Origin: Myxococcales bacterium | Lineage (GTDB): Bacteria; Myxococcota_A; UBA9160; SMWR01 | Reading direction: 5' to 3' | DNA: 34,357 bases | Assembly: GCA_029863845.1 (NCBI GenBank) | Contig: JAOTUO010000003.1 | Span: 1 to 34,357, forward strand | In this document: positions 7,911 through 34,357 of the stretch, in pieces | How positions within the stretch are numbered: position 1 is the stretch's first letter | Layout: the number at the start of each line of letters is the position of its first letter | Notes under the pieces: model-generated | Seen by the model: only the letters and a program-made list of their open reading frames with translations | Told to the model about the DNA's origin: nothing | The model's database searches: none | Made by a program: the position numbers and the translations under genes

Positions 7911-8999
7911 TTATCCGCCCAGGATCTCGGACACCGCCACCTCGCGCCCTTCGGCGTCGCTGCGCGCGGCGGCGAGGGCGAAGGCGAGTGTCTTGCGCGC
8001 TTCGGCCGCGCTCTGCTCGGGCGCGCGTCCCTCGATCAGCGCGTCGACGAAATCGCGTCCGCCGCGTCGGAACGACTCCGCCCAGTCCGCGGGGAGGTCG
8101 TGGAAGGCACGTGTCTCGCCCTCGCGATAGAGCACGACGGACGGCTCCTCGAGGAGCTTTCCCGTGCAGCGATTCACCCAGACGATGCCCTCGCTACCGT
8201 GGATCTCGAGGCGGTCGTCGCTCGCGTAGTAGTCCGAGCGCACGCGCATGCCCAAGGAGGCGATCACCTCCCAGGACCCGAAGCGGGGCGGGTCGCCGGC
8301 GTACTTCCACGAGATCAGCGCCGGTCCGTCGATGCGATCCCGGTCTCCGAGCCGCGTCCAGTGGATGAAGGCGTGTACCCGCTCGACCTCGGACGGGACG
8401 AACCAGCGGGCCATCTGGAAGCAGTGATAGCCGTGGTCGAAGGTCGTGAGGCCACCGCCGCAGAGCGTCGGGTCCATGCGCCATGCCTGGCTCTCCGGAC
8501 CGACCGTCCAGCCGTCCGCGAAGCGCCCGACGGCCGTCTTGACCCGCACCGAGAGCGGCGTTCCGATCTCGCCGGCATCGACCAGCGCCTTGGCCCGTCG
8601 GTGCGGCGGGTAGTGGCCGAAGTTCTCGAAGACCCGCAGCACCCGCCCGCTGCGGGCGGCCGCGCGGGCGACGCGGTCGAGCTCCTCGAGGGTGCGGGTC
8701 GGGGGCTTCTGGAGCGAGACGTGCTTGCCGGCCTCGAGCGCGCCGACGGCGTGAGCTGCGTGCAGGTGGTGGGGCGTCAGGATCTCGACCGCGTCCACCT
8801 CGGGATCGGCGAACAGCTTCTCCGCGTCGGTGTAGACGCGCCGCGCGCCCCACGCCTGGGCGCGGGCTCGCGCCCGCGACTCGTCGCGGTCGCAGACCGC
8901 GACGATCTCGGCGCGCGGGTGATCGAGGTAGCCGAGGCACTGGAGATCGGCGATGCGGCCGCAGCCCAGCCAACCCAGGCGAATCGTTTCCGGCGCCAT
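7911..8999 (-). CDS. Gfo/Idh/MocA family NAD(P)-dependent oxidoreductase
   Basis: LGWLGCGRIA, DPEVDAVEILTPHHLH, GKHVSLQKP (EKP variant), GGG..FDHGYH. Strong SD GGAGGAGG upstream. Confidence 0.9.
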   Translation of the reverse strand: MAPETIRLGWLGCGRIADLQCLGYLDHPRAEIVAVCDRDESRARARAQAWGARRVYTDAEKLFADPEVDAVEILTPHHLHAAHAVGALEAGKHVSLQKPPTRTLEELDRVARAAARSGRVLRVFENFGHYPPHRRAKALVDAGEIGTPLSVRVKTAVGRFADGWTVGPESQAWRMDPTLCGGGLTTFDHGYHCFQMARWFVPSEVERVHAFIHWTRLGDRDRIDGPALISWKYAGDPPRFGSWEVIASLGMRVRSDYYASDDRLEIHGSEGIVWVNRCTGKLLEEPSVVLYREGETRAFHDLPADWAESFRRGGRDFVDALIEGRAPEQSAAEARKTLAFALAAARSDAEGREVAVSEILGG

Positions 9000-16033: not shown

Positions 16034-16259
16034 GCGCTGCCCAGCACGCGTCGGCGCGGATCGGGCGCCGGGTTTCACGCGGCGGGGGAGGGGGCGCGTC
16101 CGGCCGCAGCCGGACGCGGGCTCGAGCCGTCAACCTCCCACCCCCCAGCAACGATCCGGGCGGTTGTCCCTCGAGAGCCTGACTATGCCAGAGCCCCCGG
16201 AGCTGTGGAGTGATGCGGATCACCAACGCAACGGCCGCGCCGCGCCGGGAAGGTCCCGG

Positions 16260-16295
16260 TTGACAGCGCACTTTATTTCGACAATACTGTCGAAA
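16260..16295 (+). promoter_or_regulatory. Sigma70-type promoter overlapped by a palindromic operator (likely TetR site)
   Basis: TTGACA at 16260-16265, 17-nt spacer, AATACT at 16283-16288. Perfect inverted repeat TTTCGACA-ATAC-TGTCGAAA at 16276-16295 covers the -10. AT-rich island in GC-rich DNA. Confidence 0.8.
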
Positions 16296-16317
16296 ACGAC
16301 GGGCCCGGAGAGGAAGG

Positions 16318-16899
16318 ATGCCCAAGCTCGTGGACGCCGCCGCACAGCGGCGGGAGATCCGGCGCGCCGCCCAGCGCGTGTTCGCGCGCTGTGGCGTTGC
16401 GGGCACCGGCCTGGCCCACGTGGCCGACGCGGCGGGCATGGGCCGCTCGAGCCTGTACCACTACTACCCCGACAAGCAAGCGCTGCTTCGCGACCTGGTG
16501 CGCGACCTCCTCGCCGAAGAGGAGCGCCTCTTCGACGCGGCGATCGACGGCGAAGGGAGTGCGCTCGCGCGCATCGATCGGCTCACCGCGCAGCTCGCGG
16601 GCGTCTTCGACGGGTGGGCGACGGCGGGCCGCCTGCTCACCGAGCTGCGCACGCAGTGGGCGGGCCTGTTCCGGCCCTTCTTCCGCCGCGCGCGCCGCCG
16701 CCTGGCCGAGCTCGTCGCGGAGGGGCAGCGCGCCGGAGAGATCGACGCCACCCTCGATCCCGGGCTCGCCGCCGCCGTCGCCATCGGCGCCGTCGACGGG
16801 CTGCTGCTGCAGGTGCTCGTCGACCCGCGCGCCTTCGGCGATTCCGGAGCTCTGAGCGACGCGCTGGTGCGGGTGGTGCACAAGGCGCTCGCCCCGTGA
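16318..16899 (+). CDS. TetR/AcrR family transcriptional regulator
   Basis: MPKLVDAAAQRREIRRAAQRVFARCG...VADAAGMGRSSLYHYYPDKQAL HTH; C-terminal EGQRAGEID. SD GGAGAGGAAGG. Confidence 0.93.
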   Translation: MPKLVDAAAQRREIRRAAQRVFARCGVAGTGLAHVADAAGMGRSSLYHYYPDKQALLRDLVRDLLAEEERLFDAAIDGEGSALARIDRLTAQLAGVFDGWATAGRLLTELRTQWAGLFRPFFRRARRRLAELVAEGQRAGEIDATLDPGLAAAVAIGAVDGLLLQVLVDPRAFGDSGALSDALVRVVHKALAP

Positions 16900-17555
16900 G
16901 TTCGCTGGCCCTCATGCGCTGGCTCGAGTCCGCGCCCCACCGCTACGACGCGGGCATGCGCTGGCTGACGCTGGGGCGGGTTTCCCGCGTGCACGCGGCC
17001 GTCGCCGAGGCCGCGGCGGCGAAGCCCGAAGTCCGGATCCTGGAGATCGGCTGCGGAACCGGTGCGATCACCGCCCTCCTCGTCGAGCGGGGCGCGCGCG
17101 TCACGGCGCTCGACCAGAACCCGGAGATGCTCGAGCAGGCTCGCGCCCGCCTCGCGGCCGCGCCGCCCGGGGCGGTCACCTGGATCGAGCGCACGGCGTC
17201 CGAGATCGACGCGCTGCCCGCCGCGGGCTTCGACGCGGCCGTCGCCGGCCTGTGTCTGTCGGAGATGTCCGCCGGCGAGCGCGCGTTCGTGCTGCGCGAG
17301 CTGGCCCTCCGCCTGCGTCCGGGGGGAGCGCTCGTGGCGGCGGACGAGGTCCAACCGCGCTCCACCGGGCAGCGGCTGCTGCACGCGCTGCTGCGCGGGC
17401 CCCAGGCCGCCCTGGCCTGGTTGATCGCGGGCTCCACCTCGCACCCGATCCGCGATCTCGCCGGGGAGGTCGCCGCCGCGGGCTTCGAGGTCCGGAGCGA
17501 GCGGCGCTGGCTGCTCGGTCGTCTGGCGGTCGTCGTTGCGGAGCGCCCGCGATGA
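16896..17555 (+). CDS. Class I SAM-dependent methyltransferase (UbiE/MenG-like N-terminus; corrinoid-protein-associated)
   Basis: ESAPHRYDAGMRWLTLG, ILEIGCGTG motif I, ALDQNPEML, LRPGGALVAADE. GTGA overlap with tetR and ATGA overlap with the next gene. Confidence 0.88.
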   Translation: MSSLALMRWLESAPHRYDAGMRWLTLGRVSRVHAAVAEAAAAKPEVRILEIGCGTGAITALLVERGARVTALDQNPEMLEQARARLAAAPPGAVTWIERTASEIDALPAAGFDAAVAGLCLSEMSAGERAFVLRELALRLRPGGALVAADEVQPRSTGQRLLHALLRGPQAALAWLIAGSTSHPIRDLAGEVAAAGFEVRSERRWLLGRLAVVVAERPR

Positions 17556-18655
17556 GGGTCCGCGACGTCGCGCTCGAGATCCTGCAGACGGCGTTTCGGC
17601 TGATTCCGTGGCCCACGGAGCCGGGGCTGCGCCCGGTGGGCGAGCCCGGGCCCTTCAGTCCGGTGCTCGTCACCGGGAACTACGACCTCACCGTGCGGCG
17701 CGTGCTGCGCGCGCTCCGCGGCGTGGACGCGTGGCTCGTGGTGGCCCCGGCGGGCGGCATCAACGTCTGGTGCGCGGCCGCTGGAGGCCACCTCTCGACC
17801 CACCAGGTGGTGACCGCCCTCAAGACCTCGGGCGTCGAGGATCGCGTTCGTCACCGCCGGGCGATCCTCCCGCAGCTCGCCGCCACGGGGGTGGAGGCGC
17901 GCGAGGTGTCGCGGCGCTGCCGGTGGCGGGTGCGCTTCGGGCCCGTCTACGCGAAGGACATTCCCGGCTACCTCGCCGGTGGCGAGCGCAAGACCGACGC
18001 CATGCGTCACGTTCGCTTCGGTCTCGTCGAGCGGCTCGAGATGGCGGCCGCCTGGGCCGCGCCGACAGCGATCGTAACGGGCGCCGTCGGGGCGCTGCTG
18101 CGGCCGTCCTTCGCCCCGCCGCTGGTCGCCCTGTCGCTGCTGCTGGCCGTCGCGCTGTTCTTCGTGTACGACCGGCTGCCCGGGCCCCGGCGTCTGCTCT
18201 TCGGCGGGGCGGCGCTCGCGGTCTCGCTGGCGGCGGTTGCACTCGCCGGGGGCGGCCTCCTGGCGTTCGCGATGGCGGCGGTCGCGGTCGTACTGCTCGT
18301 GGCGGTGCTGACCTTCGACTACCCGGGGACGACGCCCATCGAAGGCGCGAGCTTCTTCGAGCAGCGCCACTGGCGCATCACCCTCGACCGCGAGCGCTGC
18401 AAGGGCGTGTACTCCTGCTGGGAGGTGTGTCCCGAGGCCTGCTACGAGAAGCGCGAGGGGGTCCGCCAGGTCGACCTGGCCCACGACCAGCGCTGCGTTC
18501 GCTGCGGGGCCTGCGTCGTGCAGTGCCCGATGGACGCCCTGTCCTTCGAGGACGAGCAGGGCCGCCGCGTGGAACCGGCGACGATTCGCCGCTACAAGCT
18601 CAATATGATGGGACGTCGCGCGGTGGAGGCGGACGGCGAGCGCCCCCCGGCTTGA
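17552..18655 (+). CDS. Fused HgcAB-like protein: corrinoid-binding domain + ~4 TM helices + ferredoxin dicluster domain
   Basis: SPVLVTGNYDLT, GINVWCAAAGG (cap-helix-like, Cys at 17771-17773), ILPQLAATGV, RFGPVYAKDIPGYL, MRHVRFGLVERLE; four hydrophobic segments; CKGVYSCWEVCP and CVRCGACVVQCP. Confidence 0.88.
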   Translation: MRVRDVALEILQTAFRLIPWPTEPGLRPVGEPGPFSPVLVTGNYDLTVRRVLRALRGVDAWLVVAPAGGINVWCAAAGGHLSTHQVVTALKTSGVEDRVRHRRAILPQLAATGVEAREVSRRCRWRVRFGPVYAKDIPGYLAGGERKTDAMRHVRFGLVERLEMAAAWAAPTAIVTGAVGALLRPSFAPPLVALSLLLAVALFFVYDRLPGPRRLLFGGAALAVSLAAVALAGGGLLAFAMAAVAVVLLVAVLTFDYPGTTPIEGASFFEQRHWRITLDRERCKGVYSCWEVCPEACYEKREGVRQVDLAHDQRCVRCGACVVQCPMDALSFEDEQGRRVEPATIRRYKLNMMGRRAVEADGERPPA

Positions 18656-18701
18656 GCCGGGCGCTCGCCGCACCCCCGCCGCAGCGATCGGGAAAACGGC
18701 C

Positions 18702-20051
18702 GTGAAAGCGCCGCGCCGACAGACGCGGGTGCCCTCGGGACGGCTGGAGCGGCTCCTCCGCATCGGGTGGATGGCCGGCGAGTTCGCCGCCGGCGGCCTG
18801 GCGGCGGGCACCCGGCGGCTGGCCGGGTCGGCACCCGCGAATGCGGCCAGCGTCTTTCTCTCGGGAGCCCGCGGGGCGAGGCTCGCGCGCCGGCTCGCGC
18901 GCATGCGCGGGGCCGCCATGAAGCTGGGACAGCTGCTCTCGCTCGAAGGCGCGGACCTCCTCCCCCCGGAGTTCGCCGATGCCCTGGCCGTCCTGCGAGC
19001 CAGCGCGGACGCGATGCCGGTCTCCCAGGTGCGACGCATCCTGGGCCGCGAGTACGGCACGGGCTGGGAGTCGCGCTTCCGGGAATTCGACTTCGAGCCG
19101 ATCGCCTCGGCTTCGATCGGCCAGGTGCACGCCGCCGTCACCTCCGACGGCCGCGCCCTCGCCCTCAAGGTCCAGTATCCCGGCGTCGCCCGCAGCATCG
19201 ACAGCGACGTGAACAACCTGGCCAGCCTGCTGCGCCTGACGCGGATCGTGCCGGTGGAGCTCGACGTCACGCAGCTCATTCGCGAGGCGAAGCGTCAGCT
19301 CCGCCAGGAGGCCGACTACCGGCTCGAGGCCGAGCACCTGCGCCGATACCGCCGGCTGGTGGCGGACGATCCCGGCGTGAGTGTTCCCCGCGTGCACGAC
19401 GACTACACGACGACGCGGATCCTGGCGATGGACCGCGCCGACGGGCGCCCGATCGAAGACCTGCGCGGCCCGGAGCACCGGCAGAGCCTGAGGGACGACG
19501 CGGGGCTGCGACTGCAGCGGCTCGTGTTCCGCGAGCTCTTCGAGTTCGCCTTCATGCAGACCGACCCGAACTTCGCCAACTACCTCATCGAGCCCGATAC
19601 AAATCGCATCGTGCTGCTGGACTTCGGCTCGGCGCGCGAGTTCCACGCGGAGTTCGTGGAGCGCTACGCCCGGATCTGCCGCGGCATGATCTCGGCGGAT
19701 CTCGAAGAGGTGAGGCGCATCGCCGTCGAGATCGGGTACCTGGCCGGCGACGAGCGGGAGGACCGCGCCCGGGCCGTCGCCGAGCTGATCCTGCTGGTCG
19801 GGGAGCCTCTTCGGCACGAAGGTGTGTATGATTTCGGAGCCTCGGGCCTGGCGGCCCGCGCCCGGGAAGCCGGCTTCGACCTGGCGTTCCGCCGCGGCTT
19901 CCTGCGCGCCCCGCCGCCCGAGACCATCTTCCTGCACCGCAAGCTCGCGGGCACCTTCCTGCTGTGCGCCCGCATCCGCGCGCGCATCGACACGCGCGCC
20001 CTGATCGTCCCCTACCTGGACGCCGTGCTCGGCCCTTCCGGCCGCGCCTGA
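18702..20051 (+). CDS. ABC1/AarF/UbiB (COQ8-like) atypical kinase
   Basis: MRGAAMKLGQLLS (KxGQ), PIASASIGQVH, LKVQYPGVARSIDSD, EADYRLEA, MQTDPNFANY, LLDFG, FLHRKLAG. Confidence 0.93.
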   Translation: MKAPRRQTRVPSGRLERLLRIGWMAGEFAAGGLAAGTRRLAGSAPANAASVFLSGARGARLARRLARMRGAAMKLGQLLSLEGADLLPPEFADALAVLRASADAMPVSQVRRILGREYGTGWESRFREFDFEPIASASIGQVHAAVTSDGRALALKVQYPGVARSIDSDVNNLASLLRLTRIVPVELDVTQLIREAKRQLRQEADYRLEAEHLRRYRRLVADDPGVSVPRVHDDYTTTRILAMDRADGRPIEDLRGPEHRQSLRDDAGLRLQRLVFRELFEFAFMQTDPNFANYLIEPDTNRIVLLDFGSAREFHAEFVERYARICRGMISADLEEVRRIAVEIGYLAGDEREDRARAVAELILLVGEPLRHEGVYDFGASGLAARAREAGFDLAFRRGFLRAPPPETIFLHRKLAGTFLLCARIRARIDTRALIVPYLDAVLGPSGRA

Positions 20052-21187: not shown

Positions 21188-22858
21188 ATGGACGACGACG
21201 TCGCGATTGCGCGCTCCGTCACGCCGCTGCCCATCGGCGACGTGGCGGCCGGGCTCGGTCTGGCTGCGGAAGACCTGCATCTCTACGGGCGCGAGATGGC
21301 CAAGGTCGACCTCTCGGTGCTCGAGCGACCGCGCTCGCGCCCGGGCGAGCCGCGGCTGGTGCTGGTCTCCGCCATCACGCCCACGCCCGCCGGCGAGGGA
21401 AAGACCACGACCAGCATCGGACTCGCCCAGGCCATGGCGAAGCTGGGCGAGTCGGTCTGCCTGGCGCTGCGAGAGCCGTCGCTCGGGCCGTGTATGGGCG
21501 TGAAGGGAGGAGCAACGGGGGGCGGCTACAGCCAGATCGTTCCGGCGGACCGCATCAACCTGCACTTCACCGGGGACTTCCACGCGATCACCTCGGCCCA
21601 CAATCTGCTGGCGGCGCTGCTCGACAACCACCTCTACTTCGGAAACGCGCTGCGCATCGACCCCCGGCGCATCCTCTGGCGGCGCGTGCTCGACATGAAC
21701 GACCGCGCGCTCCGCAACGCGATCGTCGGCCTCGGCGGCGCGAAGGAGGGGGTTCCGCGCGAGACGGGCTTCGACATCACCGCGGCTTCGGAGGTCATGG
21801 CGATGCTGTGCCTGGCGACCGGCGCCGAGGATCTCCGGGCCCGCATCGAGCGCACGCTGCTCGCCTTCACCTACGACGGCGAGCCGGTGACCGCCGAGGC
21901 GCTCTCGGCCACGGGCGCGATGCTCGCCCTCCTGCGCGACGCGCTGCTTCCCAACCTGGTGCAGACGCTGGAGGGAACGCCCGCCCTGGTGCACGGCGGC
22001 CCCTTCGCGAACATCGCTCACGGCTGCAGCAGCGTGCTGGCCACGCGCATGGCGCTGCATCTCGCGGACTGGGCCGTCACCGAGGCCGGCTTCGGGTTCG
22101 ACCTCGGCGCGGAGAAGTTCTTCGACATCAAGTGCCGGAGCGCGGGCCTCGACACGGCTGCGGTCGTGCTCGTGGCCACCGTGCGCGCGCTCAAGCTCCA
22201 CGGGGGCGCCCCGCGGCGCGCGCTCGCCGCGCCCGACGCCGACGCCGTGCGCCGCGGCCTGCCCAATCTGGAGAAGCACGTGGAGAACATCCGTCATTTC
22301 GGCGAGTCGCCGGTGGTCGCGCTCAACCGCTTCGCGGGCGACGAGGAGGCGGAGATCGAGATCGTGCGCCGGCGCTGCGACGAACTGGGGGTTCCCTTCG
22401 CCGTCTCCGACCACCACGCCCGCGGTGGCGAGGGCGCCCTCGACCTCGCGCGGACGCTCTTCGTGCATACCGAGAGGCGCAGCCGTCCCTTCCGGCCCCT
22501 CTACGACTGGAGCGATCCCGTTCCCGAGAAGGTCCTGGCGGTGGCTCGCAGCATGTACGGCGCCGGCGACGTCCACTTCGCGAGGGCGGCGAAGCGCGAC
22601 CTCGAGGACGTCGAGCGCCTGGGCTACGCGGGTCTCCCCGTATGCATCGCCAAGACGCCCAACTCGCTTTCGGACGACCCGAGCCTGCGGGGGCGCCCGG
22701 AGGGCTTCGACCTGACCGTGCGCCGGGTGCTGGTCAACGCCGGGGCCGGGTTCCTCGTGGTGCTGACCGGCGACATCCTGCGCATGCCGGGGCTGCCGCG
22801 CCGGCCGCTGGCGGAGTCGATCGATCTCGACGACGGCGTCGTCGTCGGGCTGCGCTGA
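21188..22858 (+). CDS. fhs: Formate--tetrahydrofolate ligase
   Basis: AITPTPAGEGKTTT, LREPSLGP, KGGATGGGYSQ, INLHFTGDFHAIT, HGGPFANIAHG, TEAGFGFDLGAEKF, CIAKTPNSLSDDP, MPGLP. SD AGGAGG. Confidence 0.97.
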   Translation: MDDDVAIARSVTPLPIGDVAAGLGLAAEDLHLYGREMAKVDLSVLERPRSRPGEPRLVLVSAITPTPAGEGKTTTSIGLAQAMAKLGESVCLALREPSLGPCMGVKGGATGGGYSQIVPADRINLHFTGDFHAITSAHNLLAALLDNHLYFGNALRIDPRRILWRRVLDMNDRALRNAIVGLGGAKEGVPRETGFDITAASEVMAMLCLATGAEDLRARIERTLLAFTYDGEPVTAEALSATGAMLALLRDALLPNLVQTLEGTPALVHGGPFANIAHGCSSVLATRMALHLADWAVTEAGFGFDLGAEKFFDIKCRSAGLDTAAVVLVATVRALKLHGGAPRRALAAPDADAVRRGLPNLEKHVENIRHFGESPVVALNRFAGDEEAEIEIVRRRCDELGVPFAVSDHHARGGEGALDLARTLFVHTERRSRPFRPLYDWSDPVPEKVLAVARSMYGAGDVHFARAAKRDLEDVERLGYAGLPVCIAKTPNSLSDDPSLRGRPEGFDLTVRRVLVNAGAGFLVVLTGDILRMPGLPRRPLAESIDLDDGVVVGLR

Positions 22859-25569: not shown

Positions 25570-27735
25570 ATGTCGCATCGGCCAAGGATCGCATTCCCGC
25601 TCGTCGTGCTCGCCTTGCTCGCCGGCGCATCCGTTGCCGCCGCCGCGATCGAGGAGCCCGTCTACACCGAGGACGACTACCAGGAGTTCGACAACGCCGA
25701 CTGCCTGGGCTGTCACGAGGACGAAGAGCTGGAGGCGGACACCGAACGCGGCGAAGGGCTCGAGCTCTACGTGGACGAAGCGATCCTGCGGCACTCGGTT
25801 CACAAGGAGCAGAACTGCACCGGCTGTCACCGGGGCGCGCAGGACTTCGAGGACTCCCCCCACAACGAGGGCGAGCCGCTCGCGCTGAACTGCGCGGGCT
25901 CCGAGTGCCACACCGACGTCGTGTCGGAGTACGACAAGAGCATCCACGGGAAATGGCACGCGAAGGGAGACGAGGAAGCCGCGACCTGCAAGGACTGCCA
26001 CGGCAACCACGCAATCCTGCCTTCTTCGGATCGAAAGTCCAGAACCAACAAGTTCAACCTCCACAAGACCTGCGCCGAGTGTCACGAGAGCGAAGTCGTC
26101 CTCGATTCCCGCCCCATCGATTACGACGCGGCGGTGTCCGACTTCGTCGACTCGATCCACGGGAAGGCGCTGCTGGTGGACGGACTGATCGTGGCTCCGA
26201 CCTGCAATGACTGCCACGGCGTCCACAACATCCTGTCCAAGGAAGACCCGGATTCCAGGGTCAGCAGAGAGATGGTGCCGAAGACCTGCGGCGAGTGTCA
26301 CGTCCTGGTGGAGGGCGTCTTCAACGCGAGCGTCCACGGAATGACCCTCAACTCCCACGACGTCAGCGCCCCGGTCTGCACCACCTGCCATCCCTCGCAC
26401 GTCTCCGAGCTGCCCTCGGGTCTGGAGTTCCGCCTGCACGCGGACCGGATGTGCGGCGATTGTCACGCAGAGCAGCTCGCCGGCTACCGCGACACCTTCC
26501 ACGGCAAGGCGATTGCGCTGGGTCGCCAGGACGTCGCGGCCTGTTACGACTGCCACGGCCACCACGACATCGCCGAGACCCACGATCCAGTCTCGTACAT
26601 CAGCGACGAACGACGGGTGGAGACCTGCAAGAAGTGTCACCCGGCCGCCAACGCGAACTTCGCCCGCTACATGGTCCACGCCAACCACTCCGACCGGGAA
26701 GCCTATCCCCAGCTCTACTACGTCTTCTGGGGCATGACCTGGCTTCTGATCGGAACCTTCGCCTTCTTCGCACTGCACACTCTCCTGTGGCTCTATCGCT
26801 CCATGGCTCTCTACATGAGCGATTCGAGGGAGTGGCGCGACGTGAAGAACCAGGTCCGGGAAGACACCGAAGAGTTCACCCGCTTCACGCCGCTGGACCG
26901 CTTCCTGCACGGCCTGGTCATCGTCAGCTTCCTGCTTCTGGTCATGACGGGAATGCCGCTCAAGTTCTACTACACGGACTGGGCCAAGGTGCTGCTCGGC
27001 GTCATGGGCGGCCAGGCCGTCGCGGCCGTCCTCCACCGCGTGGGAGCCCTGGTCACGATCTTCTACTTCACGGTCCACGTCAGCGCCGTTCTCTACGCGC
27101 TCTTCCAGGGGCGGCGGCGCTTCTTGAATTCGGAGACCGGAAGAATCGACCTCAAGAAGATCGGCGCGGCGCTCACCGGCCCGGATTCTCCGATGCCCGG
27201 CATCCAGGACTTCAAGGACGTCATCGCCCACAACAAGTGGTTCTTCGGGATGGGACCCAAGCCGCAGTTCGACCGCTGGACCTACTGGGAGAAGTTCGAC
27301 TACATGGCGGTCTTCTGGGGCGTGGCGATGATCGGTGCGAGCGGACTGATCATGTGGTTCCCCGAATTCTTCACCCTGCTCCTGCCGGGCTGGTCGATCA
27401 ATGTGGCTCACATCATCCATTCCGACGAGGCGCTGCTGGCGGCCGGCTTCATCTTCACCTTCCATTTCTTCAACGTGCACTTCCGACCCGACAAGTTCCC
27501 GATGGATCCCGTGATGTTCTCCGGCCGAATGTCCAAGTCGGAGCTGATGCACGAGCGCGGGAAGCTGTACGAGCGCTGGGTCGCCGACGGGACACTGGAC
27601 CAGCACCGTGCGGGTCACGAGTGGGATGCCTGGAAGAAGATCGCGCTGCCCGCCGGCTTCATCGCGTTCCTGATCGGCGTCGGCCTGATGATCCTGATCT
27701 ACGTCGCCATGGCGAGCCGCCTTACCGGAGAGTAG
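25570..27735 (+). CDS. Multiheme cytochrome c (10 CxxCH + 1 CX4CH) fused to FdnI/HydC-type cytochrome b (CbcL-like)
   Basis: Sec-type signal. CLGCH, CTGCH, CAGSECH, CKDCH, CAECH, CNDCH, CGECH, CTTCH, CGDCH, CYDCH, CKKCH. TM domain RFTPLDRFLH, VLHRVG, FDRWTYWEKFDY, IIHSDEALLA, TFHFFNVH. SD GGGAGG. Confidence 0.92.
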   Translation: MSHRPRIAFPLVVLALLAGASVAAAAIEEPVYTEDDYQEFDNADCLGCHEDEELEADTERGEGLELYVDEAILRHSVHKEQNCTGCHRGAQDFEDSPHNEGEPLALNCAGSECHTDVVSEYDKSIHGKWHAKGDEEAATCKDCHGNHAILPSSDRKSRTNKFNLHKTCAECHESEVVLDSRPIDYDAAVSDFVDSIHGKALLVDGLIVAPTCNDCHGVHNILSKEDPDSRVSREMVPKTCGECHVLVEGVFNASVHGMTLNSHDVSAPVCTTCHPSHVSELPSGLEFRLHADRMCGDCHAEQLAGYRDTFHGKAIALGRQDVAACYDCHGHHDIAETHDPVSYISDERRVETCKKCHPAANANFARYMVHANHSDREAYPQLYYVFWGMTWLLIGTFAFFALHTLLWLYRSMALYMSDSREWRDVKNQVREDTEEFTRFTPLDRFLHGLVIVSFLLLVMTGMPLKFYYTDWAKVLLGVMGGQAVAAVLHRVGALVTIFYFTVHVSAVLYALFQGRRRFLNSETGRIDLKKIGAALTGPDSPMPGIQDFKDVIAHNKWFFGMGPKPQFDRWTYWEKFDYMAVFWGVAMIGASGLIMWFPEFFTLLLPGWSINVAHIIHSDEALLAAGFIFTFHFFNVHFRPDKFPMDPVMFSGRMSKSELMHERGKLYERWVADGTLDQHRAGHEWDAWKKIALPAGFIAFLIGVGLMILIYVAMASRLTGE

Positions 27736-27740
27736 TCGCC

Positions 27741-29687
27741 ATGTCGGGCATCGCAGCGCGCAGCAGCACGAGCTTCCTCGAGCCGCGAGTCGCTCTGGCG
27801 GTCTCCGTCCTGCTGCTGCTGGGATGGGTGGGCTTCGCAAAGGCCGCCCAAGCGGATCTCGAAGACGCAGCTCCCGAGGAGGAGATCGAGGCCGAGTCCT
27901 GCGGAGACTGTCACGACGAAGGTCGCGAGGACGCGCCGATCGTCACCCCGGACTTGATCGAGAGCTCCGTACACGAGGACCTGGAGTGTGAAGACTGTCA
28001 CGCCGACGCAGAGGTCGACCTACACGAGCAGCAACTCGATCTCGTCGCGTGCGAAGACTGCCACGAGGACGAAGCGGAGGTCTACGTAAAACACGGAAGG
28101 CTGGCGGTCGGAACGGACGTAGACCTCCCCAGCTGTTCCGACTGCCACGGCACGCACGAAATCCTCGTATCCGACGACGAGGCTTCGCGGGTCCATCCCC
28201 TGAATCTGCCCGATACGTGCGGAAGCTGCCACGAGGACTATGCCCTCACACTGAACCACAAATTCCTCCCGAAGCATCCGGTCGAGACGTACAGGGAGAG
28301 CGTGCACGGCAAGGCGACCTCTGGCGGTCGCTACAAGGCCGCGACCTGCAACGATTGTCATTCCACCGACAATACGGCGCACCGGATCCTCTCTCCGGGT
28401 GATCCGGAATCCACGATCAATCACTTCGCCATTCCCCGGACATGCGGTCGGTGCCACGAAGCCATCGAAAAAGACTACTGGGACGGAATTCATGGGCAGC
28501 TGACTGCGAGGGGGGAGACCGAGTCGCCCGTGTGCACCCACTGTCACGGCGAGCACCGGATCATTTCGCCCGACGATCCGCGCTCGCCCGTCAGCCCCAG
28601 CCACGTGGCGGAGGCGACCTGCGCCCCCTGCCACGAGTCGGCCACACTCAACGAGAAATACGGGATTCCGGCGGGACGCCTGGCTTCCTTCATCGATTCC
28701 TATCACGGATTGAAGAGCAAGGCGGGTGACGTCTCGGTTGCGAATTGCGCCTCGTGTCATGGTGCACACCGGATACTGCCGCATACGGATGAAACCTCGT
28801 CGATCTATGTCGACAATTTGCAGCAGACCTGCGGCGAATGTCATCCGGGCATTTCCGAAGAAATGGCTCAGTCGAAGATCCACGAAATCGGCTGGACGCG
28901 TATGAGCGGCTGGCCCGACTTCTTTGCGGTCATGTACATGATCATGATCACGGTCACCCTCTTCGGGATGCTCCTCTACATCGCTATGGACTTCCGACGG
29001 CAGCTCGGGAAGGTGCTGCGCGCAGAGCAGGTCCGACGCATGACGCGATGGGAGCTCTTGCAGCACACCGGGCTGATGATCGCGTTCCTCGTCATGGTCG
29101 TTACGGGCTTCGCGCTTCGGTTCTCGGACGCGTGGTGGGCGACGCTGCTGTTCGGCAGGGAAGGCGGGTTCCCGCTGCGCAACACGATTCACCGGGCCAC
29201 GGGGGTGATTCTGGTACTGCTGTCGCTGGCGCACCTCTTCTACCTGCGCGGCACCCGAGGACGCGAATTCCTCAGGGATGTCTTTCCTTCGCTGAGCGAT
29301 CTCGTTCAGCTTCGTCAGATGCTCCGGTACAACCTGGGGCTTTCGGACGAGAGGCCGCGCTTTGGCAGGTTCGGCTTCGGTGAGAAGTTCGAGTACTGGG
29401 CGCTGGTGTGGGGAATGGTCATCATGACCGTGACCGGCACGATGCTGTGGTTCGACAACTACTTCGTGAGGATCGTGCCCAAGGGCGTGCTCGACGTGAT
29501 GTTGGTGATCCACTATTACGAGGCGTGGCTGGCGACCATCTCGATCCTGATCTGGCACATGTATTCGACGATCTTCAATCCGGCCGTGTATCCGATGAAT
29601 CCTTCCTGGCTCACCGGCAAGATGCCGGTCGAGCAGTACCGGCATGAGCACCTGGGTGACGAAGTGGACGCCGGATGGCACCTGTGA
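27741..29687 (+). CDS. Second multiheme cytochrome c (11 CxxCH) fused to cytochrome b (CbcL-like paralog)
   Basis: Signal peptide. CGDCH, CEDCH, CEDCH, CSDCH, CGSCH, CNDCH, CGRCH, CTHCH, CAPCH, CASCH, CGECH. ELLQH, TIHR, FGRFGFGEKFEYWA, VIHYYEAWLA, IWHMY, MNPSWLTG. Confidence 0.92.
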   Translation: MSGIAARSSTSFLEPRVALAVSVLLLLGWVGFAKAAQADLEDAAPEEEIEAESCGDCHDEGREDAPIVTPDLIESSVHEDLECEDCHADAEVDLHEQQLDLVACEDCHEDEAEVYVKHGRLAVGTDVDLPSCSDCHGTHEILVSDDEASRVHPLNLPDTCGSCHEDYALTLNHKFLPKHPVETYRESVHGKATSGGRYKAATCNDCHSTDNTAHRILSPGDPESTINHFAIPRTCGRCHEAIEKDYWDGIHGQLTARGETESPVCTHCHGEHRIISPDDPRSPVSPSHVAEATCAPCHESATLNEKYGIPAGRLASFIDSYHGLKSKAGDVSVANCASCHGAHRILPHTDETSSIYVDNLQQTCGECHPGISEEMAQSKIHEIGWTRMSGWPDFFAVMYMIMITVTLFGMLLYIAMDFRRQLGKVLRAEQVRRMTRWELLQHTGLMIAFLVMVVTGFALRFSDAWWATLLFGREGGFPLRNTIHRATGVILVLLSLAHLFYLRGTRGREFLRDVFPSLSDLVQLRQMLRYNLGLSDERPRFGRFGFGEKFEYWALVWGMVIMTVTGTMLWFDNYFVRIVPKGVLDVMLVIHYYEAWLATISILIWHMYSTIFNPAVYPMNPSWLTGKMPVEQYRHEHLGDEVDAGWHL

Positions 29688-29986
29688 CCGGGACGCTGGC
29701 ACGCGACCTCGAATAGCCGAGGCCAACGAGGTGTCCGCGAGCAGCCGTGTCCCACGCGCGGCCGAGGACCTACACCGGAACAGCAGTCTGCGGGCTCCCT
29801 GGGATGAGGGGTGGCTCGCTCGGGGCGAGCGCCCGACGCAGTCGCGGACTGTGTCGATTCGCCCGCCGGACTGTAGAGGCACACCCCAGGCAGCGCCCCT
29901 GCGGTGCAGGCCCGGCAGCCTGCGCGCACCGTCCCGTAGCACTGTGTTTTCAGGCAGTTAGAGATTCGATGCGATGGGTACGAGCG

Positions 29987-30003
29987 GTGGTATGGCTCTT
30001 GCA
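29987..30003 (+). promoter_or_regulatory. Second sigma54 (-24/-12) promoter
   Basis: GTGGTATGGCTCTTGCA: GG(29989-90)-N10-GC(30001-02) with TTGCA. IHF-like TTTCAGGCAGTTA at 29948-29960. Confidence 0.75.
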
Positions 30004-30081
30004 ATACGCGAAGGACGGCTGGCGGCGGGCGATGGCGCTCGTCCGTGCGGGCCGGTGCGGGTCTTCCACGAGGCACGCCTC

Positions 30082-30204
30082 ATGGTTGCCATCTTCGTCG
30101 TCCTGTTGATCCTCGGGCTGGTCGCCATCGACGCGGCTCTCCAGCTGAGAAAGCGGCGTCGGGAGCAGCGGGCGATTTCGCCCGATCTCTCTCGAGACCG
30201 CTAG
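30082..30204 (+). CDS. 40-aa single-TM small protein
   Basis: MVAIFVVLLILGLVAIDAALQLRKRRREQRAISPDLSRDR: hydrophobic helix followed by a basic cluster. GAGG 8 nt upstream of the ATG. First ORF after the sigma54 promoter. Confidence 0.6.
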   Translation: MVAIFVVLLILGLVAIDAALQLRKRRREQRAISPDLSRDR

Positions 30205-30262
30205 CCGGGCCCGCAAGCGTCCCCGCCGTCCGCGAGCCGGGCGGGAGTACGACACGTCCCGG

Positions 30263-30287
30263 CCGCTCCCGTCGACGACGGGAGCGG
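30263..30287 (+). other. Perfect 11-bp GC-rich stem-loop in the intercistronic region
   Basis: CCGCTCCCGTC-GAC-GACGGGAGCGG; no U-tract follows. Confidence 0.6.
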
Positions 30288-30354
30288 ACGCGTCCATGCG
30301 TACGTGCGGAGCCGCATCGCAGGCCTGTGACGGACGCGGGAGGAGGCGAGTGCG

Positions 30355-31176
30355 ATGGCCCTGGGCATCTTGACCGACATCACCCGGTGCGTCGGCTGCA
30401 GAGCCTGTGTCTACGCCTGCAAGGAGATCAACGATCTGCCGAGGGACGAGGCGCGCCATCTCAACTCCGAGACCTGGACGTGCGTCGAAGAGCGGGCCGG
30501 ATTGAACGTCCGCAGGCAGTGCATGCACTGCCTGGATCCGGCCTGCGTCTCCGTCTGCCCGGTGGGCGCTCTCCGGAAGACCTCGGAGGGGCCGGTCGTG
30601 TACGACGAGTCCGCCTGCATGGGTTGCCGCTACTGCATGCTGGCCTGCCCGTACCGGGTGCCCAAGTACGAGTGGCAGAGCGCCCTGCCCCGCATGCAGA
30701 AGTGCATCATGTGCTTCCACCAACGGGTCGAGCAGGGCCAGCAGCCCGCCTGCACCGAGGCCTGCCCGGCTCAGGCCACCATGTTCGGCGAGCGGAACGA
30801 CCTGATCCGCGAGGCACGCGCGCGCATCCGGCGGAGCCCGGAGCGCTACGTGGACCACATCTATGGACTGAAGGAGGCAGGCGGAACCTCCGTCCTCTAC
30901 CTCTCCAGCCTGCCTTTCGAGCGGCTGGGTTTCCCGATGAAGCTGGACGTCGAGGCCTACCCGCGGCTGATCTGGAACATCCTGTCGACCATCCCCAACG
31001 TCGTGCTCACCGGTGGAGTGTTCATGTTCGGGCTCTGGTGGCTCATCAACCGCCGCGAGACGCTGAGCGGCACGCCCAGATCGCCGGCGGACGCCCAGAG
31101 CATCGCATCGTCGTCGCAGGACGAAGGCCCGGAGCCCGGAGCGGGTGGAGACCGCACGCGCGCCGAAGAGGAGTGA
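30355..31176 (+). CDS. 4x[4Fe-4S] ferredoxin-like subunit (HybA/HmcB/FdnH-like) with C-terminal TM helix
   Basis: CVGCRACVYAC, CMHCLDPACVSVCP, CMGCRYCMLACP, CIMC...PACTEACP; YVDHIYGLKEAGGTSVLYL; C-terminal TM then INRR. SD GGAGGAGG. Confidence 0.93.
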   Translation: MALGILTDITRCVGCRACVYACKEINDLPRDEARHLNSETWTCVEERAGLNVRRQCMHCLDPACVSVCPVGALRKTSEGPVVYDESACMGCRYCMLACPYRVPKYEWQSALPRMQKCIMCFHQRVEQGQQPACTEACPAQATMFGERNDLIREARARIRRSPERYVDHIYGLKEAGGTSVLYLSSLPFERLGFPMKLDVEAYPRLIWNILSTIPNVVLTGGVFMFGLWWLINRRETLSGTPRSPADAQSIASSSQDEGPEPGAGGDRTRAEEE

Positions 31177-31181
31177 CGACC

Positions 31182-32801
31182 ATGAAGCGGCTCTGGTCTG
31201 TCCTGAGCTTCTGGAGGGTGCTGGCCGCCGCGGTCGCGGGCATCGGGATCTGGGCCACGGTGGTCCGCTTCACCCAGGGACTGGGAGCGGCCACGAACCT
31301 GTCGGATCAGTTCCCCTGGGGCCTCTGGATCGGCTTCGACCTGCTGGTGGGAGTGGCGCTGGCCGCCGGCGGATTCACCATCACCGCGACGGTCTACATC
31401 TTCAATCTAGAGCGCTTCAGGCCCATCGTCCGTCCTACGGTGCTGACGGCATTCCTCGGGTACCTGCTGGTCATCTTCGCCCTGCTGTTCGACCTGGGCC
31501 GTCCCTACCGGATCTGGCATCCGCTGATCATGTGGAATACCCGCTCGGCGCTGTTCGAGGTGGCCTGGTGCGTAATGCTCTACACGACGGTCCTGGCCCT
31601 CGAGTTCAGCCCCATGCTGCTGGAGCGCCTGAGGTTGGAGAAGCCCGCGCGGATCATCCGGGGGCTTTCGGTTCCGCTCGTCATCGTGGGGGTGCTGCTT
31701 TCCACCCTGCATCAGTCCTCGTTGGGCACGCTGTTCGTGATCGTCCCCGAGAAGATGCACGGCCTCTGGTACACGCCCATGCTGCCCGTGGCCTTCTTCG
31801 TGAGCGCCATCGCCGCCGGCCTGAGCATGGTCATCGTGGAGTCCTTCATCAGCGCGCGAGCTTTCGGCCGGCGGCTCGAACACGATCTACTGGAGGACGT
31901 GGGTCGGGCGATCGTGGTGGTGCTGGCGCTCTACTCGATCATCAAGCTACAGGATCTGCTCATCCGGGGGGTCGCTGATCTCCTCTTCGTGCGGTCTCCC
32001 GAGTCGCTCCTGTTCCAGGTAGAGCTGGTCTTCGGGGTCGTGCTGCCCATGATCATGTTCTCCGTGCCCATGGTGCGGCGAAACCGTGGCGGTCTGTTCG
32101 TCGCAGCCCTACTGGTCGTTGTGGGACTCATCCTGAATCGGCTCAACGTGTGCATCACCGGCATGCAGGGTGCCATGGGGCAGGACTATTTCCTGGAGCC
32201 CGGCATGGAAACGGCTTATTTCCCCTCCCTGCTGGAGCTGTCCGTGACGGGATTCCTGGTGGTCATGGGCTGCGTGGGCTTCACGCTGGCCGCCAGGTTC
32301 CTGGAGGTCTTCCCGGAATCCCCTGGTCTGGATGGCGATTACGAGGCGGCGCGGATCGAAGTGCAGACCCATCCGTGGGTGCGCTGGGTCTCCAGGGGCG
32401 TACTCGTAGCCCTGGCGATCGTGTTGGTCGAGGGTGCCGTCACCTTCGACTTCAGCAGCTTCGGTGGGGAGCGCGCCGGGCCCGCGATGCTCATGTCCGC
32501 ACCGACGAACCGGCTGGTGCTTCGGCTACCGCCGGACATGTCGTACCCACCGGGCGAAGAGAGTCCCGGCGTGGTCGAGTTCAGCCATGCGATGCACGTC
32601 GATGCGGAAGAGCCCGACTGTGCCGCGTGTCACCGAGAGGCCTTTCCGCTGGTGCGGCGGGCGGGCATGATCGTGCCGCGGATGACCTGGTCGGGCGAGC
32701 AGCTTCACGAGCAGGGCTGGTGCGGAATGTGCCATGACGGAGACGAGTCCTTTTCCGTCGAGGACGAGGAAGAGTGCGGCAGCTGCCACTTCGAGCCATG
32801 A
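31182..32801 (+). CDS. NrfD/PsrC-family (HybB/HmcC-like) membrane protein fused to a C-terminal triheme c7-type cytochrome
   Basis: GLGAATNLSDQFPWGLWIGFDLL, DLGRPYRIWHP, WNTRSALFEVAWC, LSTLHQSSLG, ILNRLNV; then VEFSHAMH, CAACH, CGMCH, CGSCH. Confidence 0.92.
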   Translation: MKRLWSVLSFWRVLAAAVAGIGIWATVVRFTQGLGAATNLSDQFPWGLWIGFDLLVGVALAAGGFTITATVYIFNLERFRPIVRPTVLTAFLGYLLVIFALLFDLGRPYRIWHPLIMWNTRSALFEVAWCVMLYTTVLALEFSPMLLERLRLEKPARIIRGLSVPLVIVGVLLSTLHQSSLGTLFVIVPEKMHGLWYTPMLPVAFFVSAIAAGLSMVIVESFISARAFGRRLEHDLLEDVGRAIVVVLALYSIIKLQDLLIRGVADLLFVRSPESLLFQVELVFGVVLPMIMFSVPMVRRNRGGLFVAALLVVVGLILNRLNVCITGMQGAMGQDYFLEPGMETAYFPSLLELSVTGFLVVMGCVGFTLAARFLEVFPESPGLDGDYEAARIEVQTHPWVRWVSRGVLVALAIVLVEGAVTFDFSSFGGERAGPAMLMSAPTNRLVLRLPPDMSYPPGEESPGVVEFSHAMHVDAEEPDCAACHREAFPLVRRAGMIVPRMTWSGEQLHEQGWCGMCHDGDESFSVEDEEECGSCHFEP

Positions 32802-34357
32802 GCGCGGTCATCCAGATCTCGAACGTACTGCTCGTTGCAGCACGGCTGGGTCGCATCATCCTCGCGGTCGTTGCGGCGGTCGTGGGGCTCGGCGTCGCGC
32901 CGTCGTCCTCTCTCGGAGAGCTGCCGCCGGAACCTGGCGATGGCCACGTCACCCGTCGCGATGAGCAGACGGCATCCGTGGCGCGTGACGACGTGCGGCG
33001 GCGCGCGCCGATCACCGCGGATGACCGCGTGACCACCGACGAAGGCAGGGTCGTCGACATCGCCGTGCTGGCCAATGACCGCGATCCCGACGGCGGTGTC
33101 CTGAGGGTGGTGGGCGTAACGAAGGCCGTGAACGGCTGGGTGCTGGTCAACGGAGATCACACGCTCCGGTACCAGCCCAACACCGGGTTCACCGGCCTGG
33201 ACGGCTTCGCCTACACGGTTGCTGACGAGCACGGAGGGAAGGCGACTGCGACGGTTCGCGTCGAGGTGAACGACGTCGCCGACGCCCCGGTCGCCGAGAA
33301 TCAGGTCGTCGAGACGGACGAGGACACGCCGCTGGCGATTGCGTTGGTGGCGAGCGACGCGGATGGCGATCGGCTGACGTTCACGATCGAGAGAGCACCG
33401 GAGCACGGCTCGCTGATCGGAATGCCTCCCGACTGGTCCTACGTCCCGGATGCCGAATACAGCGGGCCGGACAGATTCGTGTTCGCGGTGGACGATGGGC
33501 ACGGCGGGAGCGACACCGGCACGGTGTCGATCACGATCGATGCCGTCGATGACGTGCCCGAGGCAGTGGACGACGAGGCGGTGACGCGCGAAGGCATGGT
33601 CGTCGACATCGCCGTGCTGGCCAACGACCGCGACCCCGATGGCGGTGTCCTGAGAGTGGTGGGCGTAACAAAGGCCGTGAACGGCTGGGTGCTGGTCAAC
33701 GGAGATCACACGCTCCGGTACCAGCCCAACACCGGGTTCACCGGCCGGGACGGCTTCGCCTACACGGTGGATGACGGCCACGGCGGGAAGGCGACTGCGA
33801 GCGTCAGCGTCGAGGTGAACGACGTCGCCGACGCCCCGGTCGCCGAGAACCAGGCCGTCGCAACGGATGAGGACACGGCGCTGACGATTGCGTTGGTGGC
33901 GAGCGACGCGGATGGCGATCGGCTGACATTCACGATCGAGAGACCCCCGGCGCACGGCTCGCTGATCGGAGCGCCTCCGGACTTGTCCTACGTCCCGGAG
34001 GCCGACTACAGCGGGCCGGACAGATTCGTCTTCGCGGTGGACGATGGGCACGGCGGGAGCGACACGGGGACGGTGTCGATCGCGATCGATGCCGTCGATG
34101 ACGCGCCCGAGGCGGTGGACGACGAGGCGGTGACGAGAGAAGGCATGGTCGTCGACATCGCCGTGCTGGCGAATGACCGCGATCCCGACGGCGGTGTCCT
34201 GAGGGTGGTGGGCGTCACCCAGGCCGTGAACGGTTGGGTGGTGGTCAACGGCGATCACACGCTTCGATACCAGCCCAACACCGGGTTCACCGGCCTGGAC
34301 GGCTTCGCCTACAGGATTGCTGACGTCGATGGCGGGATGGACACGGCGGCGGTCGGC
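32798..34357 (+). CDS. Secreted/surface protein with tandem bacterial Ig-like (cadherin-like) domains; partial, runs off the window
   Basis: Absent from the ORF track because there is no stop in the window. ATG 32798 overlaps the upstream TGA. Manual translation: MSAVIQISNVLLVAARLGRIILAVVAAVVGLGVAP...APITADDRVTTDEGRVVDIAVLANDRDPDGGVLRVV...YQPNTGFTGLDGFAYTVADEHGG...APVAENQVVETDEDTPLAIALVASDADGDRLTF...YVPDAEYSGPDRFVFAVDDGHGG. Confidence 0.9.
   Translation, partial: MSAVIQISNVLLVAARLGRIILAVVAAVVGLGVAPSSSLGELPPEPGDGHVTRRDEQTASVARDDVRRRAPITADDRVTTDEGRVVDIAVLANDRDPDGGVLRVVGVTKAVNGWVLVNGDHTLRYQPNTGFTGLDGFAYTVADEHGGKATATVRVEVNDVADAPVAENQVVETDEDTPLAIALVASDADGDRLTFTIERAPEHGSLIGMPPDWSYVPDAEYSGPDRFVFAVDDGHGGSDTGTVSITIDAVDDVPEAVDDEAVTREGMVVDIAVLANDRDPDGGVLRVVGVTKAVNGWVLVNGDHTLRYQPNTGFTGRDGFAYTVDDGHGGKATASVSVEVNDVADAPVAENQAVATDEDTALTIALVASDADGDRLTFTIERPPAHGSLIGAPPDLSYVPEADYSGPDRFVFAVDDGHGGSDTGTVSIAIDAVDDAPEAVDDEAVTREGMVVDIAVLANDRDPDGGVLRVVGVTQAVNGWVVVNGDHTLRYQPNTGFTGLDGFAYRIADVDGGMDTAAVG
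33041..34357 (+). repeat. 549-bp intragenic tandem repeat (two Ig-like domains per unit), 2 full copies + 1 partial
   Basis: GAAGGCA.GGTCGTCGACATCGCCGTGCTGGC starts at 33041, 33590 and 34139 (period 549 nt = 183 aa). The copies are near-identical in nucleotide sequence. Confidence 0.95.

Follow-up and report, generated by a model that had tools for sequence, protein, structure and literature searches.

CpaM, an S-adenosylmethionine (SAM)-dependent methyltransferase, and an HgcAB-like fusion protein are encoded side by side in a Myxococcales bacterium and very probably act as one functional unit. The gene pair lies in a stretch of 34,357 nucleotides (nt) of contig JAOTUO010000003.1 (assembly GCA_029863845.1), which was analysed as a whole and is called the window in the following. 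The region flagged there, from 16260 to 20051, holds four genes on the same strand, which encode a TetR-type regulator, the methyltransferase, a protein combining corrinoid, transmembrane (TM) and ferredoxin parts, and an ABC1-domain protein. This gene content, listed in an earlier note on the DNA (the original prediction), was confirmed. The note had also presented the genes as a candidate uncharacterised methyl-transfer system; the pairing as such is not new, since both proteins already have curated NCBIfam models, NF043039 ('HgcAB-like fusion protein') and NF043040 ('corrinoid protein-associated methyltransferase CpaM'). With some reserve, we regard a methyl transfer from CpaM to cobalt as the probable core reaction, in which case cpaM and the hgcAB-like gene would form a two-protein, SAM-fed corrinoid cassette.

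What function the HgcA family serves natively is a persistent question in mercury biogeochemistry. Genes for fused HgcAB are reported to be routinely excluded from surveys because their carriers have not been shown to methylate mercury (PMC10087281).

Conservation of the cpaM-fusion gene pair

The samples comprised 61 genomes of the same order including the window's own, 20 fetched loci of that order, and 301 Myxococcota genomes. A further 80 genome loci were the best ones from a scan of one genome per species; they span Myxococcota-type metagenome-assembled genomes (MAGs), Binatota, a Pirellulales MAG, Acidobacteriota, Chloroflexota, Aminicenantes and three archaeal MAGs. At least 13 of the 20 same-order loci recur among the 80, so that the two counts are not independent. 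Neighbouring genes were called with a codon log-odds caller; GC3-based calling picked antisense open reading frames (ORFs) in DNA of 72% GC, which is the value of the window.

CpaM was encoded directly upstream of the fusion gene and on the same strand in 19 of the 20 same-order loci, the twentieth being at a contig edge, and in most of the 20 the two genes overlapped by 4 nt. The same arrangement was present in 77 of the 80 genome loci; two of the misses (L054 and L081) start at a contig edge and the third (L090) has a fusion gene truncated at its 5' end. Presence of the two genes in genomes coincided as well. In the 61 same-order genomes the fusion protein scored over its cut-off in 21 and CpaM in 20 of these same genomes, the CpaM of the last one (G054) being cut by the contig end. 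Among the 301 Myxococcota genomes CpaM exceeded its cut-off in 34, all of which belong to the 38 with a match in the HgcAB-like range, and it was found in none of the remaining 263.

A set of 80 metagenome loci was split with our own profile into 49 of the fused type and 31 of the canonical HgcA type. Of the 49 fused-type loci, 40 had CpaM upstream of the fusion gene or within the same ORF; as seven of the nine loci lacking it offer less than 650 nt of upstream sequence, this corresponds to 40 of 42 testable loci. By contrast, CpaM was present in none of the 31 canonical-type loci, nor was it found within 1.5 kb of any of nine canonical hgcA loci in Myxococcota, all nine of which have a separate ferredoxin ORF. 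Hence, cpaM is a clean marker which parts the fused paralogues from canonical hgcA.

When the ORFs flanking the 80 genome loci were clustered all against all, the families obtained were those of the fusion protein (80 loci), CpaM (76) and TetR (33), plus shadows in alternative frames. No third conserved partner gene was found beyond TetR, the next real family occurring in at most 6 of the 80 loci, and Pfam scans of 87 neighbouring genes returned unrelated functions. Distance matrices of CpaM and the fusion protein were correlated (r = 0.886; none of 2000 permutations reached as high a value). Methyltransferase and fusion gene are thus conserved and inherited together, as shown by their adjacency in the genome and metagenome loci, their co-occurrence in the 61 and 301 genomes and the natural fusions described below; the methyltransferase is kept beside homologs in other genomes.

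One Myxococcota genome (G312) contains two complete cpaM-fusion pairs, on contigs C68 and C3, and a third HgcA-like gene without CpaM on contig C102.

Natural fusions of CpaM with corrinoid proteins

A search of 1.84 billion cluster representatives returned 1447 relatives at E ≤ 0.001, 207 of them at ≤ 1e-30. Domains were scanned in 32 of the best 150 of these relatives, chosen because their match begins well inside the protein. In at least 13 of the 32, a complete CpaM domain precedes the corrinoid protein within the same polypeptide. In eight of them CpaM is followed by a full HgcAB-like protein (P0033, P0034, P0053, P0067, P0074, P0087, P0093 and P0111), and in five by an HgcA-like part without the ferredoxin tail (P0058, P0081, P0116, P0124 and P0125). 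Two other representatives contain C-terminal CpaM fragments which probably derive from truncated ORFs. An N-terminal extension of about 100-190 residues without a match to any family model is present in most of the other 17; in three such proteins inspected as sequence, the extension includes hydrophobic, TM-like stretches. Four more cases with CpaM and the corrinoid protein in the same ORF were found in metagenome contigs.

Simple read-through cannot give rise to these fusions because the usual 4-nt overlap is frame-shifted. In a tree of the corrinoid domain (81 rows, 146 columns; many forks were not resolved), the CpaM-fused proteins need at least three origins as counted by well-supported branches. 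The repeated fusion is the strongest computational evidence pointing to CpaM and the corrinoid protein acting on each other.

Canonical HgcA formed a separate clade in this tree (support 100/100), and the large subunits of the corrinoid iron-sulfur protein (CFeSP) were placed on a long branch (100/100; length 2.4). The fusion protein of the window fell inside the fused group, nearer to HgcA than to CFeSP, and so stands apart from ordinary CFeSP subunits, in agreement with the earlier assignment. Published trees are reported likewise to part fused hgcAB from hgcA (10.1101/2022.11.21.517362).

Four of the five ferredoxin-less CpaM-HgcA-like proteins were placed without resolution at the base of the HgcA/HgcAB-like clade, and the fifth (P0116) within the main fused group; P0116 scored 220 bits on the canonical HgcA model over positions 30-319. 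Of a second fused sub-family, distinguished by an N-terminal TM extension, a targeted metagenome scan recovered only one clear member (L141:3872-6027). The L141 fusion has an N-terminal TM extension of roughly 145 residues, canonical CxxCxxCxxxCP motifs and no CpaM. A different class I SAM methyltransferase gene (Methyltransf_11, 211 residues) lies 21 nt downstream of it and another one two genes upstream.

Architecture of the fusion protein and of CpaM

The fusion protein scored 399.1 bits against NF043039 (cut-off 285), residues 9-331 aligning with model positions 3-350. A corrinoid domain with a cap-helix cysteine, a TM domain and a ferredoxin are combined in one polypeptide, as judged from PF03599, Fer4 and a structural model. 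The cap helix, given in the original prediction as N[V/I]WCA[A/G]GK, actually reads NVWCAAAGG. Its form G-[IV]-NVWCAA-[AST]-GG is invariant in 20 relatives, and residues N71, W73, C74, G78 and G79 are invariant in sets of 32 and of 35 sequences. The ferredoxin part contains the cysteine patterns C283-x5-C289-x3-C293-P-x2-C297 and C315-x2-C318-x2-C321-x3-C325-P. In the 32 sequences, which come from several phyla, C74, C283, C289, C293, C315, C318, C321 and C325 are invariant and C297 is conserved at 90% or more; none of the 32 has a cysteine C-terminal to C325.

An AlphaFold2 model built from the 32-row alignment (pLDDT 88, pTM 0.84) showed an alpha/beta corrinoid domain, four TM helices, a small ferredoxin domain and a disordered tail from residue 350. 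The helices are predicted at residues 158-183, 185-208, 213-231 and 236-255 with pLDDT values of 92-98; confidence was low in the cap region, as expected without the cofactor. Since the number of helices is even, both soluble domains would face the same side of the membrane, as a single-chain electron path requires. The top Foldseek match of the model was the deposited HgcAB model 9a0b_A (E 1.7e-11), followed by the CFeSP large subunits 2ycl, 2h9a and 4djd with root-mean-square deviations of 1.7-1.9 over about 140 columns. A sequence search of the PDB with the fusion protein returned no solved HgcA chain.

CpaM scored 268.6 bits against NF043040 (cut-off 180), with residues 3-217 covering model positions 1-216, and matched Methyltransf_25 in Pfam (E 1.2e-18). 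Its N-terminus, MSSLALMRWLES, lines up with homologues from residue 1, and SAM motif I (G52-C-G-T-G56) is invariant in 32 sequences. Similarity to the UbiE/MenG-type model TIGR01934 is weak (50.7 bits; cut-off 158). A profile search of solved structures returned generic class I methyltransferases only, matched over residues of about 20-155 (the SAM core), and gave no clue to the substrate. A conserved segment at residues of about 160-185 was considered as a membrane anchor and rejected, because it lies outside the most hydrophobic windows of the window's protein.

In one related locus (L041:5986-7191, the same record as L087), the fusion gene contains an in-frame triple repeat of the 12-residue unit AALEGLDAWLVV just before the cap helix, which could be a true tandem duplication or an assembly artefact.

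Relation to known corrinoid systems

The window shares the architecture of the curated NF043039/NF043040 pair and of 'fused HgcAB' (Podar 2015; Gilmour 2018; Capo 2022; Lin 2023) and differs from it in nothing essential: corrinoid, TM and ferredoxin parts are on one chain and the methyltransferase is encoded directly upstream. The same cpaM-fusion arrangement is present in the OP8 genome of Candidatus Aminicenans sakinawicola (L119), in which Podar et al. first reported fusions. Particular to the Myxococcota clade, as compared with other fused HgcAB, are the TetR regulator with its conserved operator, a short membrane domain of four helices and, in the window, the ABC1 neighbour. No literature on a methyltransferase partner of fused HgcAB was found, supplementary tables aside; the partner is represented only by the database model.

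With canonical HgcA and HgcB the fusion protein has in common a CFeSP-derived corrinoid domain, the cap-helix cysteine, a membrane domain and a ferredoxin partner. That the methyl group ultimately comes from SAM was reported for canonical HgcAB (PMC11588087) and would apply to the window cassette as well. Scores against the canonical models, the check proposed with the original prediction, were below both cut-offs: 159.8 bits for HgcA (NF040863; cut-off 275), limited to residues 22-165, and 47 bits for HgcB (NF040864; cut-off 99). Further differences are (i) one chain instead of two; (ii) a cap NVWCAAAGG that matches none of the accepted HgcA motifs, which are reported to end in GK (PMC10087281), the high-stringency form being N[VI]WC[AS][AGS]GK; (iii) four modelled TM helices as against five reported for HgcA (PMC11588087); (iv) a first Fe-S motif of the form C-x5-C-x3-CP-x2-C, whereas HgcB is described as having two canonical CxxCxxCxxxCP motifs (PMC11588087); (v) absence of equivalents of the C-terminal HgcB cysteines C73 and C94/C95, where C73, C94 and C95 of HgcB were reported to be crucial (PMC11588087); and (vi) a separate SAM methyltransferase as obligate partner, which is absent from all nine Myxococcota and all 31 metagenome loci of canonical type.

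The system also resembles the CFeSP large subunit (AcsC/CdhE) with the methyltransferase MeTr, in that the corrinoid-binding fold is the same and, by the reaction proposed below, a separate methyltransferase would load the Co(I) protein. Against the CFeSP model NF003195, however, the fusion protein scored 72.9 bits (cut-off 306) over only the last ~125 of 450 model positions. Unlike CFeSP, it is membrane-bound and has neither the TIM-barrel nor the N-terminal cluster domain, and the putative donor enzyme is a class I SAM methyltransferase instead of a methyl-tetrahydrofolate enzyme. In outline, class B radical SAM enzymes and TsrM are comparable, in which SAM methylates Co(I) and methylcobalamin then methylates a site inaccessible to SAM; a comparison with cobalamin-dependent SAM methylases is drawn in the discussion of PMC11588087. 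The fusion protein is not a member of that family, as it has no radical SAM domain, no CxxxCxxC cluster and no Rossmann-type B12-binding domain, and SAM binding is placed in a separate class I methyltransferase.

Proposed reaction and alternative explanations

The proposed reaction has four steps. (i) The C-terminal ferredoxin would take up low-potential electrons and reduce the corrinoid of the N-terminal CFeSP-like domain to Co(I), as suggested by the domain content and by canonical HgcAB. (ii) CpaM would bind SAM and hand its methyl group to Co(I), yielding CH3-Co(III) and S-adenosylhomocysteine (SAH); this step is proposed because of the obligate adjacency, the co-occurrence, the repeated natural fusion and the published SAM-to-Cob(I) transfer in canonical HgcAB. 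(iii) By homology, the invariant Cys74 of the cap helix would become the lower axial ligand of CH3-Co(III). (iv) The methyl group could then leave as a carbanion or radical to a soft electrophile beyond the direct reach of SAM. The likely acceptor, we infer, would be a thiophilic metal(loid) or some other electrophile encountered at the membrane face. SAM alone methylates only nucleophiles, which would explain the use of a corrinoid relay. When reduced to Cob(I), purified canonical HgcAB was reported to be methylated by SAM but not by methyl-tetrahydrofolate, with formation of stoichiometric SAH; a Co-thiolate forms from the conserved cysteine, and the ferredoxin clusters were proposed to be electron mediators (PMC11588087). 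This SAM loading may serve as precedent for a loading of the corrinoid by CpaM.

Several observations weigh against the proposed transfer. Canonical HgcAB is reported to take SAM without a separate methyltransferase (PMC11588087). The need for a specialised SAM enzyme in loading is therefore not obvious, and CpaM might have another target, such as a product, or take part in reactivation only. As the genomes are related, adjacency, co-occurrence and distance correlation do not count as independent observations; they would also be expected of sequential enzymes that make no contact, and a correlation of the size observed is expected of any two linked genes. Four of the 301 Myxococcota genomes (G326, G271, G184 and G301) have an intermediate HgcA-like match and no CpaM, and the two testable fused-type metagenome loci without CpaM are L141 and L174. 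Further, CobS (PF02654) was not found in the genome of the window, a MAG of 4.14 Mb that is 91% complete, so that the organism may have to obtain the corrinoid by salvage. Its genome (G000) does use B12, with nine matches to the B12-binding domain PF02310 over the cut-off.

That the main chemistry is instead reductive (e.g. dehalogenation of halomethanes) or relies on another donor, with CpaM serving to reactivate Co(II) or to methylate the product, appears unlikely. The activation module of methionine synthase performs a SAM-dependent reductive reactivation of oxidised Co(II), and what reductive methylation calls for is precisely a ferredoxin and SAM. The loading of canonical HgcAB by SAM alone is in keeping with such a reactivating CpaM, and heterologously expressed HgcAB was reported in a 2026 preprint to dechlorinate CCl4 (10.64898/2026.04.26.720869). 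Beside the pair in the 80 genome loci, however, no other methyltransferase, dehalogenase-type or donor-activating gene is conserved, which leaves SAM via CpaM as the only donor route encoded by the cassette; and at least three separate fusions along with translational coupling in most loci would not be expected of a CpaM engaged in repair only. Still less probable is a working mercury methylase, i.e. a single-chain orthologue of HgcA plus HgcB for which CpaM merely boosts the delivery of SAM. In its favour are the shared corrinoid domain, invariant cap-helix cysteine, TM domain and ferredoxin module, the HgcAB model as top structural match, the position nearer to HgcA than to CFeSP in the tree, and SAM as donor in canonical HgcAB (PMC11588087); moreover, Podar et al. 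noted that a negative culture assay is no proof against catalysis by a fused protein (PMC4646819). Yet the fusion protein stays below the cut-offs of both canonical models, its cap fits no accepted GK-ending HgcA motif, canonical HgcA forms a clade of its own, and all 32 sequences end without a cysteine past the second Fe-S motif, which argues against the HgcB route of Hg(II) delivery. In addition, two other cultured organisms with fused genes were reported to form no methylmercury above controls (PMC4646819, PMC5893877).

A four-gene operon of which the ABC1 kinase is an integral part, with a regulatory or lipid/quinone-linked role, is highly improbable. The ABC1 gene is indeed on the same strand and begins 46 nt after the stop codon of the fusion gene, as had been claimed, with no promoter-like site in between, and CpaM has the weak UbiE/MenG-like similarity mentioned above. 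An ABC1 homologue was, however, present in none of the 20 and none of the 80 related loci. The syntenic locus L034 comprises, in this order, acyltransferase, cpaM, fusion gene, a gene for an EamA-family transporter and beta-lactamase, with no ABC1 gene between the fusion gene and the EamA gene. The protein scored 178 bits against the UbiB model TIGR01982 (cut-off 487.55) and is assigned to the generic ABC1 domain PF03109 only. Finally, a strong hairpin across the stop codon of the fusion gene separates it from the ABC1 gene (-38.7 kcal/mol versus -25.6 ± 2.7 in shuffled sequences; z -4.85; none of 200 as good), which makes co-transcription of the ABC1 gene less certain than originally stated. 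The ABC1 kinase is an unrelated neighbour outside the conserved cassette, and its inclusion in the system is therefore withdrawn.

For the SAM-fed cassette of CpaM and the fusion protein, an accessory and inducible function such as detoxification would fit, given its patchy spread (21 of 61 and about 38 of 301 genomes), its occurrence across phyla and domains, and TetR control. A more far-reaching proposal is offered tentatively and with considerable doubt. The pair might be a polarity-inverting methylase that passes the CH3+ of SAM via a Cys-ligated corrinoid, as a CH3 carbanion or radical, to an electrophile close to the membrane, for instance a toxic metal(loid); at the same time, a CpaM-type SAM module might represent the older state of the HgcA superfamily, from which canonical HgcAB with its direct use of SAM would be derived. 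The second part is suggested by the ferredoxin-less CpaM-HgcA-like single chains near the base of the HgcA/HgcAB-like clade, where their branching is not resolved. If true, the cassette would show what the mercury-methylation machinery evolved to do. The fused paralogue is nearly always accompanied by a dedicated SAM methyltransferase, sometimes in one chain, and needs no third conserved gene; along with the 2024 result on SAM as donor for canonical HgcAB, the pair offers a compact two-gene system to express and assay. The window itself is ordinary, being one more member of the curated families, with a well-preserved TetR operator usable for ligand screening.

Organisation of the locus and proposed TetR control

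Coordinates of the features are compiled in the table. The overlaps which link tetR, cpaM and the fusion gene are as claimed, with GTGA at 16896-16899 and ATGA at 17552-17555.

Features of the cpaM-fusion locus in the window.
Feature	Position	Strand	Remarks
Sigma-70-like promoter TTGACA-17 nt-AATACT	16260..16288	+	10/12 consensus positions
TetR operator candidate, palindrome TTTCGACA-ATAC-TGTCGAAA	16276..16295	.	overlaps -10
TetR-family repressor, 193 aa	16318..16899	+	PF00440 E 6.2e-12; TetR_C_6 E 1.3e-08
cpaM, class I SAM-dependent methyltransferase, 219 aa	16896..17555	+	GTG start overlaps tetR stop (GTGA)
HgcAB-like fusion protein, 367 aa	17552..18655	+	ATG overlaps cpaM stop (ATGA); NF043039
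Corrinoid-binding domain, residues 19-139, CFeSP large-subunit C-terminal fold	17606..17968	+	PF03599 E 6.7e-14
Cap-helix motif G69-INVWCAAAG-G79	17756..17788	+	Cys74, candidate lower axial Co ligand
Membrane domain, four predicted helices	18023..18316	+	DSSP on AlphaFold2 model
Ferredoxin domain	18377..18556	+	Fer4 Pfam hits; 4Fe-4S motifs, residues 276-344
GC-rich hairpin across stop codon of fusion gene	18628..18680	+	possible terminator or attenuator without T-tract
ABC1-domain atypical kinase	18702..20051	+	PF03109 E 2e-63; GTG start

A single promoter with an operator had been claimed ahead of the genes, and one promoter-like site was in fact found between 15900 and 20300, where 0.1 were expected (mean of shuffles). 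The inverted repeat formed by TTTCGACA and TGTCGAAA has arms of 8 + 8 nt that are 100% complementary and covers the -10 element. A putative operator of the form T[TA]TCGACA-N4-TGTCGA[AT]A precedes tetR in 28 of 32 related loci, where at least 13 of its 16 positions agree, and is perfect in 17 of these 28; the remaining four have the related form CGTCGAC...GTCGAAA in its place. By rough arithmetic, not derived from shuffles, the chance of such agreement (≥ 13 of 16) within 165 nt is ~1e-3 or less.

Both an N-terminal TetR helix-turn-helix (PF00440) and a palindromic operator candidate at its own promoter are present, in line with membership in the TetR family; no NCBIfam equivalog scored over its cut-off with the protein. 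TetR orthologues (48-65% identity) abut cpaM in 9 of the 20 same-order loci by tblastn, and a further one was detected with Pfam in L024. The nearest relatives of the window's locus are recorded as Myxococcota or 'Deltaproteobacteria bacterium', and TetR was present in 33 of the 80 genome loci, every one in the Myxococcota-type group. The best explanation would be that TetR represses the cassette in this Myxococcota lineage via the palindrome over the -10 element. Regulator, promoter and operator candidate are all present in the window, as predicted; TetR control would be a clade-level addition to the cassette, with regulator and operator conserved mainly in Myxococcota.

In L024 a divergent gene for an ArsR-family regulator (8556-8894) adjoins the tetR-cpaM-fusion unit, as a single case; ArsR-like regulators were reported beside canonical hgcAB (PMC7438021). 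Upstream of the tetR promoter in the window, a perfect GC-rich inverted repeat of 10 + 10 nt with a 4-nt loop (16095-16118) lies 62 nt past the stop codon of a PCMT gene; it is probably the terminator of that gene and sets it apart from the tetR promoter.

Surroundings of the cassette

A formate-tetrahydrofolate ligase gene (21188-22858; PF01268, E 4.5e-243) follows the ABC1 gene at a distance of 1.1 kb. No homologue of it occurs beside the cassette in the 20 related loci, and so it provides no link to the C1 pathway. From 25606 to 34357 the GC content falls to 0.60-0.68. This part of the window, apparently a cluster for respiration or extracellular electron transfer with a composition of its own, encodes two multihaem cytochrome c proteins with fused cytochrome b561-type domains, a 4Fe-4S dicluster protein, an NrfD-like membrane protein that carries a cytochrome c7 domain, and a large cadherin/Big_9 repeat protein.

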